Assembly: GCF_013315695.1 (NCBI RefSeq)
Contig: NZ_CP054353.1
DNA length: 64,000 nucleotides
Direction: 5' to 3' (one strand)
DNA from: Escherichia coli
Lineage (GTDB): Bacteria; Pseudomonadota; Gammaproteobacteria; Enterobacterales; Enterobacteriaceae
The notes below the pieces were generated by a model that saw nothing but the letters and a program-made list of their open reading frames with translations, had not been told where the DNA came from and ran no database searches. The translations under genes were made by a program, and so were the position numbers. Below, piece by piece: positions 42,075-51,253 of the stretch; the stretch's first letter is position 1; every line of letters starts with the position of its first letter.

Positions 42075-44033
42075 TTAAAATCCATCAAGTAGCTGATTGA
42101 TACCATTGCTCTCATCACAATTTATTTGCTCTAACTCAAATAAAGCACTGTCGTACTTTATTTGGGGAGTGTTTTCAAATGACAATAAAGATTCGATTAG
42201 TCTTATTTCTTTATCTTTATTTATGTCTTTAAGTGAGTCTAAAGTTAAATTGAATTTAACTTCGGGTTGTTTTCCTACTTCCATCATGATATTTGACTCC
42301 AACTCTGGATCAGTATTGAAGAATCGATGTGTCTTATGGAAATAACTAGGTTTTCTTGATTTTAAAATACTTAGTATATCCGACTTGATAGTGCTTTCCC
42401 GTGCTATCACAAGCCAATGGTTGGCAACCCCTGTGATGGTGGTAATGATGTGGGAGCCATTTTCACTTAGTTCATTAAAGGCTCTTAAGTCACCCTTGAA
42501 AAAATCATTTAGCAACTCATTTTCTTTATCTTTATCAAAAAGGTAAATTATTGAATTGCCGGCTAATGATATTTCAGCCTTGGTTTTTATAGTATCGCAA
42601 TTAAATTGCGCGGTCTCATTTTTTAATTCTTCGTAAGATGATTTTAAGTCTAAAAGCAAGCATTTTATTATACTTGATCTGAAAGATGAGTAATCAATAT
42701 CAGCACAAAGTGAAAATAAATTTCTGTGACGAATGGATTCAGGGCTGTAATATAGCTTTGTTAATATTTCTTTTTGGCGTTCTTTTGTGTCACGACAGAT
42801 AAACATAGCTGCAAAATATTCCATTAATGATTTGTGTGACCAACGAATAATAGCGCCTTCTTTGACAAATAATGGAACGGTTTCAATTAAGTCCTGAATA
42901 AAAAGAGATGGTGAAGTTGATATTCCGGGAATTTTTGAAATGATATTTTGCAATGTTATTTGCAGATCGTCTTTCGTAAACTCAATTTTACCTCCGTCTT
43001 TCAAACACCAAAAACCTAATCTCCTTAAGACCTGATGGAAGTCAGTGGAGTCTAGCTTAGAAAATTTTTCTCTAACATAACCAAGTTCTTTAGTTAAATC
43101 ATGAGACTCATACAAAGCGTCAAATACTTGGCTATAAAATAACTCTCTTTTTCTTGGTATTATCGGTTTGAATTTATATGCACAAAATAATAATGAAACA
43201 TAAAGAGGTGTGGATAAAAATTCATTTAGATTATGACCATTCTCCAGTCGTAATCCTTTAATTAATTGAGATGAAATAGGGCCACGTCCATCATATCGAC
43301 GTAATAGATCATACGCTTGATTCGTTTCTAATGGGTTGATTTTAAATCTTGAGAAACCATGTAGTTCTGATAAGAAATTATCATGACGAGAAGTTATAAT
43401 TATTTTGCTTTCTGAGAAATTATTAGCAAAGGTACTTAGTAAATTTACGATCTTGGATTTGAGTTGTTGTGGGATTTCATCTATGCCATCGAAAAGATAA
43501 ATAAAAGGGATTTTTTTGAGGCAGTTGTCTGAAATGTCTTCTCCTAAACCAAGTTGATGTTTCACCTGTAGCGCAAAATCATAATCTTTAGCACGTCGTA
43601 ATTCAATGTATATTGGAATGTATTCCTTATTAGCGATGCAATCTAAAGCAATTCTTTTCATTAGGGTGGACTTACCCATTCCTGCTGAGTCAGTGATTAA
43701 TATATGATTGAAATTATCTAATAAATCTGCATTGTCTTTTATTAGGCATGTGTATGGTTTTTTTTCATTATCGTAATAAATGCTCATTGGCTCATAAATA
43801 TCTAGAAGCTCTACTGGAGTATTTTGAAAAGCTAAGGTATTCACAAGGGAGCATTGCCCTTTCACATTTGATAGGAAACGTTCAAGATTTTTATTCAAGA
43901 AGCGTGCTGCATGTACATCTATTAAATAATTACGAACACTACTTTCTATGATAGGTAATATTTTATTCTTAATAACCTCCTTTGCCCATGGAAGGGATGC
44001 AGAGACTAATACATCAAGAGATACTGGTTGCAT
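42075..44033 (-). CDS. NACHT-type STAND NTPase (bacterial NLR-like), candidate anti-phage protein
   Basis: 652-aa ORF; Walker A DSAGMGKST, Walker B IYLFDGIDEI, sensor-1 KIIITSR; visibly AT-rich; starts 3 nt after int stop. Confidence 0.7.
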   Translation of the reverse strand: MQPVSLDVLVSASLPWAKEVIKNKILPIIESSVRNYLIDVHAARFLNKNLERFLSNVKGQCSLVNTLAFQNTPVELLDIYEPMSIYYDNEKKPYTCLIKDNADLLDNFNHILITDSAGMGKSTLMKRIALDCIANKEYIPIYIELRRAKDYDFALQVKHQLGLGEDISDNCLKKIPFIYLFDGIDEIPQQLKSKIVNLLSTFANNFSESKIIITSRHDNFLSELHGFSRFKINPLETNQAYDLLRRYDGRGPISSQLIKGLRLENGHNLNEFLSTPLYVSLLFCAYKFKPIIPRKRELFYSQVFDALYESHDLTKELGYVREKFSKLDSTDFHQVLRRLGFWCLKDGGKIEFTKDDLQITLQNIISKIPGISTSPSLFIQDLIETVPLFVKEGAIIRWSHKSLMEYFAAMFICRDTKERQKEILTKLYYSPESIRHRNLFSLCADIDYSSFRSSIIKCLLLDLKSSYEELKNETAQFNCDTIKTKAEISLAGNSIIYLFDKDKENELLNDFFKGDLRAFNELSENGSHIITTITGVANHWLVIARESTIKSDILSILKSRKPSYFHKTHRFFNTDPELESNIMMEVGKQPEVKFNLTLDSLKDINKDKEIRLIESLLSFENTPQIKYDSALFELEQINCDESNGINQLLDGF

Positions 44034-44036
44034 GAA

Positions 44037-45245
44037 TTATACCTTATTTTCTACGTTTAAATTTTTGACCTTAAGTCCCCACCAGTTCATTAAATCGATT
44101 CTGGTATGTAAATATGTTGAGCGGTTATATGCTCTTCTAACTTCGTTTTTGTCAGAGTGCGCTAAAGCAGCTTCAATGACATCTGGGTTAAAACCTCTTT
44201 CATTCATGGCTGTACTTGCTATTGAACGTAGACCATGAGCAACCAGCTTCCCGCCATAACCAATACGTTTTAAAGCAGCATTAGCAGTTTGGCTATTCAT
44301 TGGCTGTTTTGGGTCATTTCTACTGGGAAAAACATGTTCACGATGAGCACTGATTGGTTTCATTACCTCCAGAATCTCTATTGCCTGAGGTGATAAAGGA
44401 ACAATGTGTTCCCGCTTAGCTTTCATCCGTTCGGCTGGAATAGTCCAGAGCTTTGCGTCAAGATCGATCTCTGCCCAACGAGCACCGGAAGCTTCAGAAG
44501 GGCGCACAAGGGTCAGAAGCTGCCACTCAATTAGACAGCGAGTCGAAACAGAGAGGTTCGACATCACCAAAGAGCGCATGAGTTTTGGTAATTCTTCAGG
44601 TCGTAGCGTTGGCATGTGTTGCTTTTTGGGTTTCTCAAATGCCATACCAATACCAGATGCCGGGTTTGCATCAATCAGGCCAGTGTTGACGGCGTAGATC
44701 ATGATTTCGTTAATACGCTGCACCAGTCGACGTACAGTCTCTAGCGCCCCACGTGCTTTGATTGGCTCAAGGGTTTCAACTAGTGTTCGGGCTTTGATTT
44801 GCTGGACAGGGATCTCCCCGATGACAGGGAATACGTCTTTTTCCAGTGACCGCCATATATCTTTAGCGTAATCGGGTGTAACGCTTTTGCTTTTGAGCTG
44901 GAACCAGTTAGCGGCGACCGTTGAAAAAATACTGTCCAGAGCGATTTGCTGCTGTTCCTCTGCAACTTCGGCCTGAATTTGCGGGTCAATTCCGTTGGCT
45001 AACAAAGCAAGGTAATCCGCTCTTAACCGTCGAGCATCAGCAAGTGAAAGGGCGGGGAAAGCACCAAGCCCCATCATTGTCCGCTGTTTTGTTGCTGGAC
45101 GTTGATAACGGAAACGCCACAACTTCTTACCGTTCGTTTTAACGAGCAGAAAAAGACCATCGCCATCATGTAACGTTAGATCCTTTTCTAACGCTCTAGC
45201 GCGCAGAACTTCTGTGCTGGTCAGGGGGCGTGTCGTTCTTGCCAC
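44037..45245 (-). CDS. P4-type tyrosine integrase
   Basis: 402-aa ORF; conserved R...HxxR...Y catalytic pattern near C-terminus (AHGLRSIAST, Y in RRAYNRSTY); adjacent to ssrA 3' fragment. Confidence 0.9.
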   Translation of the reverse strand: MARTTRPLTSTEVLRARALEKDLTLHDGDGLFLLVKTNGKKLWRFRYQRPATKQRTMMGLGAFPALSLADARRLRADYLALLANGIDPQIQAEVAEEQQQIALDSIFSTVAANWFQLKSKSVTPDYAKDIWRSLEKDVFPVIGEIPVQQIKARTLVETLEPIKARGALETVRRLVQRINEIMIYAVNTGLIDANPASGIGMAFEKPKKQHMPTLRPEELPKLMRSLVMSNLSVSTRCLIEWQLLTLVRPSEASGARWAEIDLDAKLWTIPAERMKAKREHIVPLSPQAIEILEVMKPISAHREHVFPSRNDPKQPMNSQTANAALKRIGYGGKLVAHGLRSIASTAMNERGFNPDVIEAALAHSDKNEVRRAYNRSTYLHTRIDLMNWWGLKVKNLNVENKV

Positions 45246-45429
45246 TGTGGCCGCTCCTTCATTAATTGGTATACGCGTTTAGGTAAACATCCTACCGTAT
45301 ACCTAAACGTATACCAATAATCACTGGATTTAGCTGGATATCCTCGGACAACGGTAGACACAAAAAAGCCCGCAGAGCTTGTGCCATGCGGGCTTTCAGG
45401 ATTTCTCCGGACGTATCCGGAAGAGCAAG

Positions 45430-45474
45430 TGGTGGAGCTGGCGGGAGTTGAACCCGCGTCCGAAATTCCTACAT
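45430..45474 (-). other. ssrA: 45-nt copy of the ssrA (tmRNA) 3' end: att core at junction of the two prophages
   Basis: reverse complement reads ATGTAGGAATTTCGGACGCGGGTTCAACTCCCGCCAGCTCCACCA (tmRNA T-arm and acceptor with CCA); upstream tmRNA body absent. Confidence 0.7.
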
Positions 45475-45589
45475 ACCATTTTCACTATAACAAAAACATT
45501 AACTTGCGTTTAAAATCATCAAGTTAGTATTATCTTATGTTTGTCCGTTTTACTCATTTTTAATGCTCTGTCGCCAATCTGTCGCCACA

Positions 45590-46240
45590 TTATCCGCTGC
45601 TTGAGTTGAAATCTGTGGGTTTACGGAGATTAGATCTTATGGTTTTTTCAGCGATACGAATAGTCGAAAATTTATGCAGGTTCATCAGTGCTATACAAAT
45701 CCCAAGTGCAAAAAAGTAGCTGGACATTCCTAATCTTTGCATATCAGTAAGTTTATTAATTTTCTCTAAAATATGTTGGGTTACTAATCCTTCGTATACA
45801 AAAGGTATGGAAGTTATAAAACCGCCAATAAAATAGAATGTTAAGCTTATCAGCTTTATAGATTTTCTATATATCCAAAAGCGATATCTTTTTTTTGTCC
45901 ATTTAAATATTTGTTTTTCACTACTAATAGAAATTAGTTTTTGACACTTGCTATAGTTATCAATGTCATTAACTGGATCGTTAACACCTAAAAGAATCTC
46001 TCTCTGTTCTGGAGTTAGGTTCTTATCTTTTGTTATTGCAGCAATACCATAATTATATGCAACTTTCTTGATTTTGGGATCTTCAGTATTCTTATATAGA
46101 TTGTATGCAAACTCGCTAATGTTTTTGCGCGAGTTGAAAATCTTATCTTTGGGGAAAACCCAGCCGGATCTTACCGCGAGCATCTGTATGATCGGGGTAA
46201 TTATCGCGACAGAATACTTAATTATCTCGTTTATGTTCAT
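45590..46240 (-). CDS. hypothetical membrane protein, prophage cargo between att and int
   Basis: 216-aa AT-rich ORF with hydrophobic segments; starts 15 nt after int stop on same strand. Confidence 0.5.
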   Translation of the reverse strand: MNINEIIKYSVAIITPIIQMLAVRSGWVFPKDKIFNSRKNISEFAYNLYKNTEDPKIKKVAYNYGIAAITKDKNLTPEQREILLGVNDPVNDIDNYSKCQKLISISSEKQIFKWTKKRYRFWIYRKSIKLISLTFYFIGGFITSIPFVYEGLVTQHILEKINKLTDMQRLGMSSYFFALGICIALMNLHKFSTIRIAEKTIRSNLRKPTDFNSSSG

Positions 46241-46254
46241 GATCCATTGTTTAC

Positions 46255-47271
46255 TTAAATTAAGTTATAAAGAGGGTTTTTTGTTACTGCATCCTCCAGG
46301 TGGTCTGGAGAGAAGTGTGCATAAATCATCGTCATTTTAATATCTGAGTGCCCTAAAATATCACGTAAAACGAGTATGTTCCCACCGTTCATCATAAAAT
46401 GGCTGGCAAATGTATGGCGCAGGACGTGGGTGCATTGGCCTTCCGGTAGTTCAATACCGGCCCGTTTTACCGCCCGTTCAAAGGCTTTTCTGCATGGTGT
46501 GAATAATTTCCCTCGGTTTTTGGGTAGCTCGTTGTACAGATCCTGAGATATCGGTACGGTACGGTTTTTTTTACCCTTGGTCTTTGTATAGGTAATCCGG
46601 TATTTCGATAGTTGATGGCCCTGCAGGTTTTCAGCTTCACTCCAACGAGCACCGGTTGCTAGGCATATTTTTGCAATCATTAGCAGACTGGGGCTTTGAG
46701 AATCAGCACAGGCATCCAGCAGACGTTTAATTTCCTCCGGGGTTAGGAACGCCAGTTCACCCTCCGTAATTTTAAATGTTGGAAGCCCGGCAAGCGGGTT
46801 GGGGGCTGACCAGTGGCCCAGCTTTTTCAGTGTACCAAAAACAGATGATAGGTTGCGCTGTTCAAGGTTTACCGTGCGGGGCTTAACGGGTGACATGAAC
46901 GAGCCGTCTTCATTTTGGACCTCCCCCTTTAATCTGGCTTCCCGATATTTTGTGAAATCACCTGCTGTCAGCTCAGAGGCGATGGGATCGCCTAGACCAT
47001 TACAGATAATTCTAAGTTTCGCCATCAGGCGTTTGGGGTCTGCGAGTGTTTGACCATATAGGGAATACCACTGCTCAATCACTTCTGATAATCGCCGCCG
47101 ATCTTCCTTCTCACCAAGCCATGGCTTTTTGTTTACTTCGTTCATGGTGAAGTTTTCGAATGCTATGGCTTCGCCTTTCGTGGCAAATTGCTTACGCACG
47201 CGCTTGCCATTGCGTCCATTGGGATAGCACTCACACAACCATTTTCCGTTCGGCTGTTTTCTGATGGTCAT
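46255..47271 (-). CDS. P2/186-type tyrosine integrase
   Basis: 338-aa ORF; C-terminal HVLRHTFASHFMMNGGNILVLRDILGHSDIKMTMIYAHF catalytic block. Confidence 0.85.
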   Translation of the reverse strand: MTIRKQPNGKWLCECYPNGRNGKRVRKQFATKGEAIAFENFTMNEVNKKPWLGEKEDRRRLSEVIEQWYSLYGQTLADPKRLMAKLRIICNGLGDPIASELTAGDFTKYREARLKGEVQNEDGSFMSPVKPRTVNLEQRNLSSVFGTLKKLGHWSAPNPLAGLPTFKITEGELAFLTPEEIKRLLDACADSQSPSLLMIAKICLATGARWSEAENLQGHQLSKYRITYTKTKGKKNRTVPISQDLYNELPKNRGKLFTPCRKAFERAVKRAGIELPEGQCTHVLRHTFASHFMMNGGNILVLRDILGHSDIKMTMIYAHFSPDHLEDAVTKNPLYNLI

Positions 47272-47272
47272 A

Positions 47273-47905
47273 TCAAAGGCTCTTAATGATTTTCAGTGCA
47301 CGGCCTACTACCTCAATGTCATCCAGGCCACACTCAAACGATGAATCATCCTGATGCACTACTAATCTGTTTCCCGGGAGTCGAGTCAATTTAACAATGC
47401 TTTTTATCCCGTCGATATCGACTAACCACATACCATTCACTGGTGGTGTTTGGTTGCGATCTATTAAATAAGAATCACCAGAAGTAGTCACCAGCAGTAG
47501 GTTGCTTGAGTCTGAGGGGAGTATGCTGCTATCAATGATTGCTTTTCCAGCATCGACCAATAAACCACCGTTGAGAGTCGCCTTGTCAATTTCAGGAGAT
47601 ACTAGTTCAGAAAGAGGTACAACCTTGCTGGAGTTCACGGAATTGATATTTTTTTTAGGTTCAATGTTTGGACCTGGCTCCCCCTGTCCGGTGGTTAGCC
47701 ACAGTAAAGAAACTCCTGTTTCCAAGGCGCACTGAATCACCCACTCTGCAGGAAAACTATCTCTTAAGTATCTGTTTGCCATGGTGCTTTTTGATGCGCC
47801 TAAGTGATCGCAAAGTTGCTGTCTGGACTTGAAATCATAGGCTGCCATTAGTCTATGGATAGCTTCTCTTCCCCCTGTATTCTCTCCAGCCTTTACCTGT
47901 ATCAT
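47273..47905 (-). CDS. CI-type lysogeny repressor (N-terminal HTH, C-terminal oligomerisation/S24-like domain)
   Basis: 210-aa ORF divergent from apl/cII; HTH LGASKSTMANRYL. Confidence 0.7.
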   Translation of the reverse strand: MIQVKAGENTGGREAIHRLMAAYDFKSRQQLCDHLGASKSTMANRYLRDSFPAEWVIQCALETGVSLLWLTTGQGEPGPNIEPKKNINSVNSSKVVPLSELVSPEIDKATLNGGLLVDAGKAIIDSSILPSDSSNLLLVTTSGDSYLIDRNQTPPVNGMWLVDIDGIKSIVKLTRLPGNRLVVHQDDSSFECGLDDIEVVGRALKIIKSL

Positions 47906-47922
47906 TTTTTAATCCTGTTGAC

Positions 47923-47970
47923 GTATCAAATATTGGATCGTAGTATCTCGATGTATCAAATATTGAATCA
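47923..47970. promoter_or_regulatory. lysis-lysogeny switch region with two 18-bp direct operator-like repeats GTATCAAATATTG(G/A)ATC
   Basis: repeats at 47923-47940 and 47953-47970 between divergent cI and apl; TTGACG -35-like hexamer adjacent. Confidence 0.4.
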
Positions 47971-48024
47971 ATTAAAACGAGATAAAACGACGTAAACCAA
48001 ACCTTAATCGGGAGATACTGCACT

Positions 48025-48267
48025 ATGAGCACTGATATTTCAATTCGTGTACCAAAAGAGATGGCTACGCCTGCAGAGTTCGCGGAATGGGAAGGTATCT
48101 CCCGCGGCTCCGTGTATCAAAAAATTCACCATGGTCAGCTTGCTAAATACATGGTCAAGAAAGAAAAAAATAAAGGCCGCGTAAACCTTCGTTATCTGAT
48201 GTACAAAACTGATCAGGTCCGTGAATCCCTCGGTCATTCCAACTTCCGCGTCATTGTTGGTAAGTAA
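48025..48267 (+). CDS. Apl/Cox-like excisionase-regulator
   Basis: 80-aa ORF first in rightward early operon, divergent from cI. Confidence 0.5.
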   Translation: MSTDISIRVPKEMATPAEFAEWEGISRGSVYQKIHHGQLAKYMVKKEKNKGRVNLRYLMYKTDQVRESLGHSNFRVIVGK

Positions 48268-48299
48268 GTTCAATTATGGGAACTTTCTAAGGGGGCACC

Positions 48300-48809
48300 A
48301 TGTTTGATTACAAGATTTCCAAACATCCGCATTTCGATGAAGCCTGTAGGGCTTTTGCACTGCGTCACAACCTGGTGCAACTGGCAGAACGTGCAGGCAT
48401 GAATGTACAGATTCTGCGGAACAAGCTGAACCCAGCTCAGCCTCATTTATTAACCGCACCAGAAATCTGGCTGCTTACCGATCTGACTGAAGATTCAACG
48501 CTGGTAGATGGTTTTCTGGCACAGATTCATTGTCTGCCATGTGTACCGATTAATGAGGTGGCAAAAGAGAAACTGCCACATTACGTCATGAGTGCAACCG
48601 CAGAGATCGGGCGTGTTGCTGCAGGTGCGGTATCTGGCGATGTAAAAACCTGTGCCGGTCGTCGTGATGCTATCAGCAGCATTAACTCTGTAACACGACT
48701 GATGGCGCTGGCGGCTGTTTCATTGCAGGCCCGTTTACAGGCTAATCCTGCGATGGCGAGTGCAGTTGATACCGTGACTGGCCTCGGTGCTTCATTCGGT
48801 TTGCTGTGA
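48300..48809 (+). CDS. phage CII-like regulatory protein (186 CII family)
   Basis: 169-aa ORF at cII position. Confidence 0.6.
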
Positions 48810-48983
48810 GGTGCTTATGCTGACGAAAGAACCATCATTTGCATCGCTGCTGGTAAAACAAAGCCCGGCAATGCACTACGGTCACGGCTGGATCATGGGT
48901 GAGGATGGTAAACGCTGGCATCCGTGCCGTTCACAAGATGAATTGCTGTCTGAATTGACCACGGGGAAACGGAGAAAGTCAAA

Positions 48984-49208
48984 ATGTATGCAGCGGAAAG
49001 TGAAGTGGTTTATCAGTTTCGTTACAGAGGGGAGAGTTATTCAGTACCTGAAGATGATTTGCTCTGTTGTTATCCGTCGTTGTCGGGCGATGGCAGTTAC
49101 TTTTTCACGCTAAAGGATGGGACGTTTTTACGAGGAGAGCAGGTTAAAGAAACGATACGAAAAAATGTATCTCCTCTCGAACGTTACCGTAAGAACAAAG
49201 AACAATAG
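48984..49208 (+). CDS. hypothetical early protein
   Basis: 74-aa ORF in early operon; overlaps a less protein-like 108-aa ORF. Confidence 0.3.
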   Translation: MYAAESEVVYQFRYRGESYSVPEDDLLCCYPSLSGDGSYFFTLKDGTFLRGEQVKETIRKNVSPLERYRKNKEQ

Positions 49209-50100: not shown

Positions 50101-50399
50101 CAAGGGCAGTGCGTATCCATCAATTAAAAATTGCACCTAAGTATTTCAACGCTGTGGTTGCAGGTCAAAAGACGGCTGAACTTCGTAAAGACGATCGTGG
50201 CTATAAAGTTGGTGATGTTCTTTCTCTTTGCGAATGGAAGCATGGCGTATTTACGGGTAGGGAATGGGCCGCTGTTATCTCTCATGTGCTTCCGGTTAAT
50301 GACGTCATGGCAGTTTCAGAACAATGGGTGATGCTATCAATTCGCCCATTAACTCCATTAGAAGCTTTGGGATATGTTATTGCAGGAGGTGCTGTATGA
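50097..50399 (+). CDS. small ASCH/DUF3850-like protein
   Basis: 100-aa product from [17 protein letters not shown]. Confidence 0.4.
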
Positions 50400-51253
50400 G
50401 CACCATCCTGAAATGGGCAGGTAATAAAACTGCCATTATGTCCGAACTGAAAAAACATCTTCCTGCTGGCCCGCGACTGGTTGAACCTTTCGCGGGTTCC
50501 TGTGCTGTGATGATGGAGACGGATTACCCCAGCTATCTTGTTGCGGATATTAATCCTGATTTAATCAACCTCTATAAAAAGGTTGCTGCTGATTGTGAAT
50601 CGTTTATATCTCGCGCCAGAGTTTTATTTGAGATCGCAAACAGGGAGGTGGCTTATTACAACATAAGGCAGGAGTTTAATTACTCAACTGAAATTACTGA
50701 TTTCATGAAAGCGGTATATTTCCTGTATCTAAATCGTCACGGTTACCGTGGTTTATGTCGCTATAACAAGAGCGGGCATTTCAACATTCCCTACGGTAAT
50801 TATAAAAATCCGTATTTCCCTGAAAAAGAAATTCGCGCATTTGCAGAAAAAGCCCAGCGAGCAACGTTTATCTGCGCCAGCTTTGATGAAACGCTGGCGA
50901 TGTTGAAAGCGGGGGATGTGGTGTATTGCGATCCGCCGTATGACGGTACGTTTTCCGGCTATCACACTGACGGCTTCACTGAAGATGACCAGTATCACCT
51001 GGCATCTGTTCTTGAACATCGGTCATCAGAAGGACATCCGGTCATTGTTTCTAACAGTGACACATCCCTGATCCGTTCGCTGTATCGCAATTTTACTCAC
51101 CACTACATCAAGGCAAAACGCAGCATCGGTGTGGCAGCTGGCGAGGGTAAATCAGCAACAGAAATCATTGCTGTTTCCGGGCCGCGCTGCTGGGTGGGAT
51201 TTGATTATTCGCGTGGCGTGGATAGTTCTGCCGTGTACGGAGTACGTGCATGA
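50396..51253 (+). CDS. DNA adenine methyltransferase (Dam-like, phage-encoded)
   Basis: product from [11 protein letters not shown]; catalytic DPPY motif in [10 protein letters not shown]. Confidence 0.8.

Follow-up and report, generated by a model that had tools for sequence, protein, structure and literature searches.

The CI repressor of phage 186 combines a helix-turn-helix N-terminal domain with an oligomerising C-terminal domain, and its oligomer is a wheel of seven dimers. The 17-bp inverted-repeat operators of this phage overlap pR, where three of them are found two helical turns apart, and pR and pL face one another. Additional CI sites lie at FL, inside cI, and at FR, at the apl–cII junction. 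The single operator at FL is 17 bp in length (PMC3675496). The sites of Apl are 6-bp direct repeats, 10–11 bp apart, between pR and pL (PMC7498355).

Promoters that lie face to face, 40–60 bp apart, are general in the P2-like phages (PMC7498355). The operators of the P2 type consist of two direct repeats, 22–34 bp apart centre to centre, which flank the −10 box of the early promoter in P2 and WPhi (PMC1904268).

The locus described here was analyzed within a window of 64,000 nucleotides (64 kb) of the genome of Escherichia coli. It is an ordinary 186-type phage switch, with operators that are predicted rather than experimentally mapped, and its annotation is otherwise routine. The earlier note on this DNA recommended a comparison with the pR and pL operators of 186, and the likeness extends to the family of the repressor, the 17-bp inverted repeats that overlap pR, the facing promoters, and their offsets from cI and apl. 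It does not extend to the number and spacing of the operators, given that only two strong sites are present here, 30 bp (about three turns) apart, rather than the three of 186, at two turns.

The Prophage and Its Switch Genes

A 186/Fels-2-like (Peduoviridae) prophage has its left end in the interval of 45.4–50.4 kb of the window, with the following features:

45379–45527: fragment at the left boundary of the prophage, with a match in the phage SEN8 attP region (from the comparison of ORF translations with SEN8)
45590–46240: ORF of 216 aa between the left boundary and int, with hydrophobic stretches and no Pfam match
46255–47271, minus strand: int
47273–47905, minus strand: cI repressor gene, 210 aa, 186 CI family (Pfam PF07022 and PF16452)
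47906–48024: cI–apl intergenic gap, 119 bp, 33% G+C
48025–48267, plus strand: apl (Cox-like excisionase/repressor), 80 aa, 30% identity to 186 Apl
48300–48809, plus strand: cII (Pfam Phage_CP76)
48300–48327, plus strand: ATGTTTG...CAAACAT at the beginning of cII, a homologue of the CII-binding site that is annotated in 186 and activates pE
50324–51253: methylase ORF, a Dam-like DNA methyltransferase encoded by the prophage

The left boundary (45379–45527) resembles, by eye, the 3′ end of ssrA, and no intact tmRNA was recovered by ARAGORN in 44000–46000. The adjacent 216-aa ORF is possibly a cargo gene.

The CI repressor encoded beside the repeats contains the Phage_CI_repr (PF07022, 5.5e-31) and Phage_CI_C (PF16452, 9.2e-28) domains, is 32% identical to 186 CI, and matches the 186 CI structures PDB 2FJR (3.7e-27) and 2FKD (1.7e-13). 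The apl product matches 186 Apl with an E value of 3e-13, and is annotated in the relatives as Apl or excisionase. The Pfam domains of CI and the match to 186 Apl, with cI on the minus strand and apl on the plus strand, agree with the earlier placement of the repeats between divergent repressor and apl genes. The coordinates assigned to the repeats at that time, 47906–48024, are nevertheless those of the whole cI–apl gap, inside which the two copies lie.

Two Dyad-Symmetric Sites in the cI–apl Gap

The two copies, referred to here as O1 and O2, are as follows:

47923–47939: O1, GTATCAAATATTGGATC, in the pR spacer, at about −30 to −14 (PWM score of 20.1 bits)
47953–47969: O2, GTATCAAATATTGAATC, over the pR start, at about +1 to +17 (PWM score of 22.6 bits)

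The PWM is a symmetrised matrix derived from only the 16 O1/O2 variants, and was scanned over the 64-kb window. The two copies are identical at 16 of their 17 positions, with starts that are 30 bp apart, and a gap of 13 bp between them. They had been described as 18-bp repeats spaced 30 bp apart, of which the two copies and their spacing stand, while the length is corrected to 17 nt. When the 119-bp region was shuffled 2000 times with its dinucleotide composition preserved, direct repeats with no more than one mismatch reached a longest length of 8.7 nt on average and of 15 nt at most, in comparison with the 17 nt observed, and none of the shuffles (0/2000) reached the observed repeat. No further copies of the 17-nt pattern were found in the 64-kb window, even at three mismatches. 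A 20-nt repeat unit (GAYGTATC...) recovered by the repeat search was rejected, given that its three extra bases vary freely in the relatives.

Each copy is a 17-bp pseudo-palindrome, GWWYCAA-N3-TTGRWWC, and the half-sites of O1 pair at six of seven positions around one centre. The dyad scan recovered the FL, FR, and central pR operator of 186 as a positive control. The relatives available for comparison, 80 IMG/VR loci and four phages (SEN8, Kp4845-2, MLG42, and SopEPhi) with CI proteins that are 86–100% identical, provided 34 distinct intergenic variants among 84 loci, and both sites are kept in all of them, as they are in 70/70 distinct relatives with the same CI type. The whole intergenic region is approximately as conserved as coding sequence in this group, and conservation alone does not mark out the repeats. 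In the relatives, O2 varies at its three leftmost bases and at the three in its centre, while TCAA...TTGAATC is nearly invariant (with a single variant, TCCA), and among the natural variants are TGTTCAAATATTGAATC and GATTCAAATATTGAATC, the latter a perfect palindrome of 17 bp. As this variation respects the symmetry of the site, the unit would be the GWWYCAA-N3-TTGRWWC dyad, and the repeats are best described, from their sequences, as two putative dyad operators, rather than as direct-repeat half-sites of the P2 style.

The resemblance to a P2-type operator, in which the copies would be direct half-sites and a single repressor dimer would place one of its subunits on each, as with the C proteins of P2, P2 Hy dis, and WPhi, is superficial. 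It consists of the direct orientation of the copies, which flank the −10 box at a distance of 30 bp from each other, in a switch with face-to-face promoters. The P2-type C repressors belong to another family, however, with roughly 100 aa, in comparison with the 210-aa CI of the 186 type found here, and their operators have half-sites of 8–10 bp, rather than 17 bp, without an internal dyad, and no distal sites. Each of the 17-mers, in turn, is itself dyad-symmetric, with natural variants that improve the symmetry as far as a perfect palindrome, which makes a P2-type operator very unlikely.

Predicted Promoters pR and pL

Two promoters are predicted in the region of the gap:

47918–47946, plus strand: predicted pR, with −35 TTGACG (47918–47923), a 17-nt spacer, −10 TAGTAT (47941–47946), and a start near 47953
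48015–48043, minus strand: predicted pL, with −35 TTGAAA (48043–48038), a 17-nt spacer, −10 CAGTAT (48020–48015), and a start near 48008

The pR promoter was found by the consensus scan, and its hexamers are kept in heteroimmune relatives. It is offset from the cI start codon by 13 nt, in comparison with 15 nt for the annotated pR of 186, and O1 occupies its spacer, while O2 covers its predicted start. The pL promoter, with a −10 box that matches the consensus at only three of six positions, was missed by the scan, and was read from the sequence. Its offsets from the apl ATG are those of the annotated pL of 186, with the −10 box 5–10 nt upstream and the −35 box 13–18 nt inside apl, and the stretch is nearly invariant in all of the relatives, including the heteroimmune ones. 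While the genes are divergent, the predicted promoters would thus lie face to face, by homology with 186, about 55 bp apart, and, in this orientation, the pL transcript would cross both repeats into cI.

With their direct orientation, their exact 30-bp spacing, and a beginning at the −35 hexamer, the copies might in principle be left over from a promoter that was duplicated in tandem as a 30-bp unit, such as a decayed second promoter comparable to the PR1/PR2 pair of HP1, which has two tandem early promoters, with the repeats unbound as such. The similarity between the copies ends at the 17-mer, however, and the remainder of the 30-bp unit is unrelated, while neither a −35 nor a −10 box of acceptable quality accompanies the second copy (about 6/12 matches by eye, and none in the scan). 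The presence of both copies in all of the 70 distinct relatives, with variation that respects the dyad symmetry, and of related motifs at FL- and FR-like positions, also argues against a relic, which is considered to be just as improbable as the P2-type operator.

Some minor features were observed in the vicinity of the promoters. An inverted repeat, TATCTCG (47944–47950) and CGAGATA (47978–47984), brackets O2, and is replaced by TATCTTG and CAAGATA in relatives of the Kp4845-2 type, which is a compensatory change. In 37 loci, this inverted repeat has G·U pairing, on the pL transcript only. The fold of the pL leader RNA was no better than that of the shuffles (z = −1.05), and no Rfam family was found at the switch.

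A GATC sequence is located at 47936–47939, in O1, immediately 5′ of the −10 box of pR, and is kept in all of the long-linker immunity groups, in the forms TTGGATCGTAGTAT, CAAGATCGTAATGT, CGGGATCGTAAGTT, and AGTGATCTTAATAT. The promoter or operator might be sensitive to methylation, given this GATC beside the −10 box and the Dam-like methyltransferase of the prophage.

Association of the Sites with the Type of Repressor

The relatives provide a natural swap of the two regulators. In every phage examined with the CI type of the window, the 17-mers score 16–23 bits, with Apl proteins that are 66–100% identical, whereas they score no more than 6.5 bits in phages with Apl 96–99% identical and CI 52–58% identical (Fels-2, Kp4865-2, ST437phi4.1, and Cartapus), which keep the promoters and the TAAAAC-type boxes. 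This indicates that the 17-mers go with the type of CI, and not with that of Apl, although they also adjoin cI, so that their co-occurrence with the CI type is, in part, plain linkage.

A site for a host factor need not track the CI type in this way, which weighs against the binding of an architectural protein, such as IHF, that would bend the promoter region. In favour of IHF are the low G+C content of the region (33%), the similarity of TATCAAATATTG to the IHF consensus WATCAANNNNTTR, and the involvement of IHF at the att sites in these phages (PMC7498355). The consensus is unmatched in 47000–49000, however, and the repeats fit only a version with three central Ns, rather than four. The variants of O2, in turn, change WATCAA to GTTCAA, ATTCAA, or GTTCCA, with the dyad kept or improved and TTGAATC invariant, and a role as IHF sites appears even less probable than either of the alternatives above.

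The swap also bears on the Cox-like protein Apl, which acts, in 186, in the interval between pR and pL, represses both promoters, and has direct repeats as its sites. These known sites are 6-bp repeats 10–11 bp apart, however, and not 17-mers 30 bp apart. The 17-mers are absent from phages with a 96–99% identical Apl and another CI, and are kept in those with an Apl that is only 66–70% identical and the CI of the window. A better set of candidates for Apl is found between O2 and pL:

47973–47998, plus strand: candidate Apl boxes TAAAAC, TAAAAC, and TAAACC, at 47973, 47983, and 47993, with an exact spacing of 10 bp

These boxes are kept in phages in which the Apl is the same but the CI is of another type, and no comparable array was seen in 45300–46300, near the attachment site and int. 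Apl is thus the least probable ligand of the 17-mers among those considered here.

It is very likely, on the strength of these comparisons, that O1 and O2 are the main operators of the 186-family CI repressor of the prophage. The earlier suggestion of probable CI operators that overlap the lytic promoter is supported, as a prediction, by the position of the sites at pR, their 17-bp dyad form, their linkage to the CI type, and the distal copies of the motif. No literature was found that maps operators or CI binding for the SopEPhi or Fels-2 types of CI.

Distal and Weaker Operator-Like Sites

The PWM ranked O2 (22.6 bits) and O1 (20.1 bits) ahead of the matches at 47658 (13.7 bits) and 48267 (12.9 bits), which lie about 265 and 314 bp out, and correspond in position to FL, inside cI, and FR, at the apl–cII junction, in 186. 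These sites, and the next-best match near O1 and O2, are as follows:

47658–47674: FL-like site, GGTTCAATGTTTGGACC, inside cI at the linker codons 78–83, 265 bp to the left of O1 (13.7 bits)
48266–48285: FR-like dyad, AAGTTC-AATTATGG-GAACTT, at the apl stop and upstream of cII, with the PWM match at 48267, AGTTCAATTATGGGAAC (12.9 bits)
47899–47915: GTATCATTTTTTAATCC, a weak match to the operator motif that covers the start codon of cI and the RBS region, with its centre 24 bp to the left of O1 (7.7 bits)

The FL-like site is a probable distal CI site. A match of this quality has a P of 0.008 in shuffles of the cI gene, and a score of at least 8 bits is found in 65/70 distinct relatives, despite changes in the amino acids. 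The core is broken in some relatives. It is also the best non-operator match in the whole SEN8 genome. Additional conservation of this site beyond that of the rest of cI was not found, with the site ranking 582 of 617 windows.

The FR-like dyad, 314 bp to the right of O2, is a possible distal CI site, with a P of 0.007 in local shuffles, and is found in the position of the 186 FR (ATTCACTTTATGTGAAT), to which it is similar. The dyad (AAGTTC-N8-GAACTT) is conserved in all of the relatives, including those with other CI types, and its spacing is one base longer than that of O1 and O2. On the minus strand, its central bases are CATAAT, which is probably the −10 box of the CII-activated promoter pE. 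In 186, pE overlaps FR.

The succession of the FR-like dyad, the probable pE −10 box, and the repeat resembling a CII-binding site (48266–48327) is the same as that in 186, and is common to all of the CI types examined. The weak match GTATCATTTTTTAATCC is confounded by coding and RBS constraint. Another sequence, ATTTCAATTCGTGTACC, at 48037–48053, over the −35 box of the predicted pL and 84 bp to the right of O2, scores 4.5 bits, which is too weak to call. In 186, pL is also covered by weak and poorly defined contacts of CI, of which this match is reminiscent.

In SEN8, the operator-like sequences GTTCTCAATATTGAAT and GTATCATTATTGCGAT, with one base fewer, are found upstream of ogr (25467–25507), about 21 bp apart. 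A pB-like operator pair upstream of this late activator was considered and rejected, given that the stretch is conserved whatever the type of CI (Fels-2, RE2010, Cartapus, and ST437phi4.1), and the two sequences may represent the promoter of ogr, or else a CI site that is shared. A perfect 17-bp palindrome, GTTCTCATTATGAGAAC, is present inside the Cartapus cI, 272 nt from the start of the gene, in an FL-like position, and is unlike the pR dyad of Cartapus, but like the A-type format of 186. The half-site GTTCTC/GAGAAC recurs at the apl–cII junction and upstream of ogr in many of the relatives.

Operator Layout and the Specificity of the Repressor

The operators of 186 and the sites described here have the same length, and the A-type half-site of 186, ATTCAC, resembles the (G)ATTCAA found here, with the half-sites 1 bp closer to the dyad at the present locus. 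The central operator of 186, ATCTCTCAATTGGGAGAT, by contrast, is unrelated in sequence to O1 and O2. A wider spacing is found in 186 itself, at pB, where similar CI sites of the 17-bp class lie 32 bp apart centre to centre, and bind CI with high affinity (PMC3675496). This pair is about three turns apart, as are O1 and O2, but is located at the promoter of the late activator, and not at the switch. The three-turn spacing of pB distorts the DNA, and is considered to be non-preferred in 186.

Similar layouts are found in more distant members of the family. The CI of the Haemophilus phage HP1, which belongs to the same family (26.9% identity by tblastn), is encoded in a phage in which the dyad GGGTCAAACGACCC fills the annotated PR2 spacer and a second, GGGTCAATTGACCC, begins 5 nt after the −10 box, 28 bp away centre to centre. 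The HP1 dyads have the core TCAA/TTGA in common with O1 and O2, but are 14 bp in length, without a central spacer, and are known here from the sequence and the annotated promoters only. In the Cartapus-type phages, a perfect palindrome, ATCTTGAATCAAGAT, is present in the pR spacer, with a related sequence 31 bp downstream, and a divergent member has ATCACGATTCGAGAT, in which the change preserves the symmetry of the dyad. Given this, the layout of one dyad in the spacer and another at the start, 28–31 bp apart, appears to recur in the family. No repeated dyad was found at the positions of O1 and O2 in Fels-2, and the operators of this phage were not definable by eye.

The interdomain linker of the CI analyzed here is 16 residues longer than that of 186 CI, and a longer linker has been remarked previously in SopEPhi and Fels-2 (PMC3448106). 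HP1, in which the linker is short and the spacing nevertheless 28 bp, weakens the case for this linker as the cause of the 30-bp spacing.

The predicted recognition helix of the HTH, SKSTMANRY (CI residues about 28–50; HLxxSKSTMANRYLRD), is almost identical in the CI proteins of the window, Fels-2, ST437phi4.1, and Cartapus types, although the pR-proximal dyads differ among these four groups. The 17-mers have the outer GAT(Y) in common across the CI groups, and differ in the inner bases, while the N-terminal 12 residues of CI, and a few residues of the turn, vary between the four groups. Dyads that differ under a near-identical helix imply either that specificity is determined elsewhere in CI, or that the assignment of the sites is incomplete. 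The immunity specificity may thus lie outside helix 3, if the picture is complete, and the reading of the inner operator bases by the variable N-terminal arm is one possible source of it. That the CI proteins of this subfamily (SopEPhi/Fels-2-like) normally seat adjacent dimers three turns apart, rather than two, with specificity outside the recognition helix, is a doubtful proposition, although, if true, it would provide a natural case of a wider wrapping geometry, a puzzle raised by the AFM data for 186.

Proposed Mechanism of the Switch

The sequences of the two sites, their dyad symmetry, their placement against consensus promoters and the annotated promoters of 186, the repressor family, and the association with the CI type are observed directly. 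We infer, in the following model, that CI binds the sites, that it does so cooperatively and as an oligomer, and that the distal sites are used. One CI dimer would bind each 17-bp pseudo-palindrome, with a half-site of about GWWYCAA and a 3-bp centre, through its N-terminal helix-turn-helix domains, while the C-terminal domains would assemble the dimers into a higher oligomer. Separated by 30 bp, or about three helical turns, O1 and O2 would be filled cooperatively through this oligomer.

With CI on O1, in the pR spacer, and on O2, at the start, RNA polymerase would be excluded, and the early lytic operon (apl, cII, and the downstream genes) would be switched off. The silencing of pR would, in turn, relieve the transcriptional interference on the facing pL, sustaining the transcription of cI, as in 186. 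The weaker copies at 47658 and 48267 may join the same oligomer by looping, as do FL and FR in 186.

Distribution and Significance

Of 5,426 complete E. coli genomes, 223 were matched in megablast by a 600-bp query over the switch, with a coverage of at least 80% in 135 of them, although part of this query is common to other immunity types. The immunity type of the window is also found in phages of Salmonella (SopEPhi and SEN8), Klebsiella, and Yersinia. SopEPhi carries a virulence effector.

The predicted operator set should help to predict superinfection immunity and inducibility. The locus also provides a natural comparison for the switch of 186, with the same repressor family and promoter geometry, but with a longer linker and two putative operators at a three-turn spacing, and adds the puzzle of recognition helices that are almost identical in heteroimmune relatives.

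Over 601 bp at the switch (47700–48300 of the window), the sequence is matched without a difference (100% identity) by a prophage remnant in E. coli LR-33. This remnant (NZ_AP027523.1, 1225309–1228369) is degraded, adjoins ssrA, and contains int, cI, apl, and a truncated cII, and its orphan CI, together with its operators, might still confer immunity.
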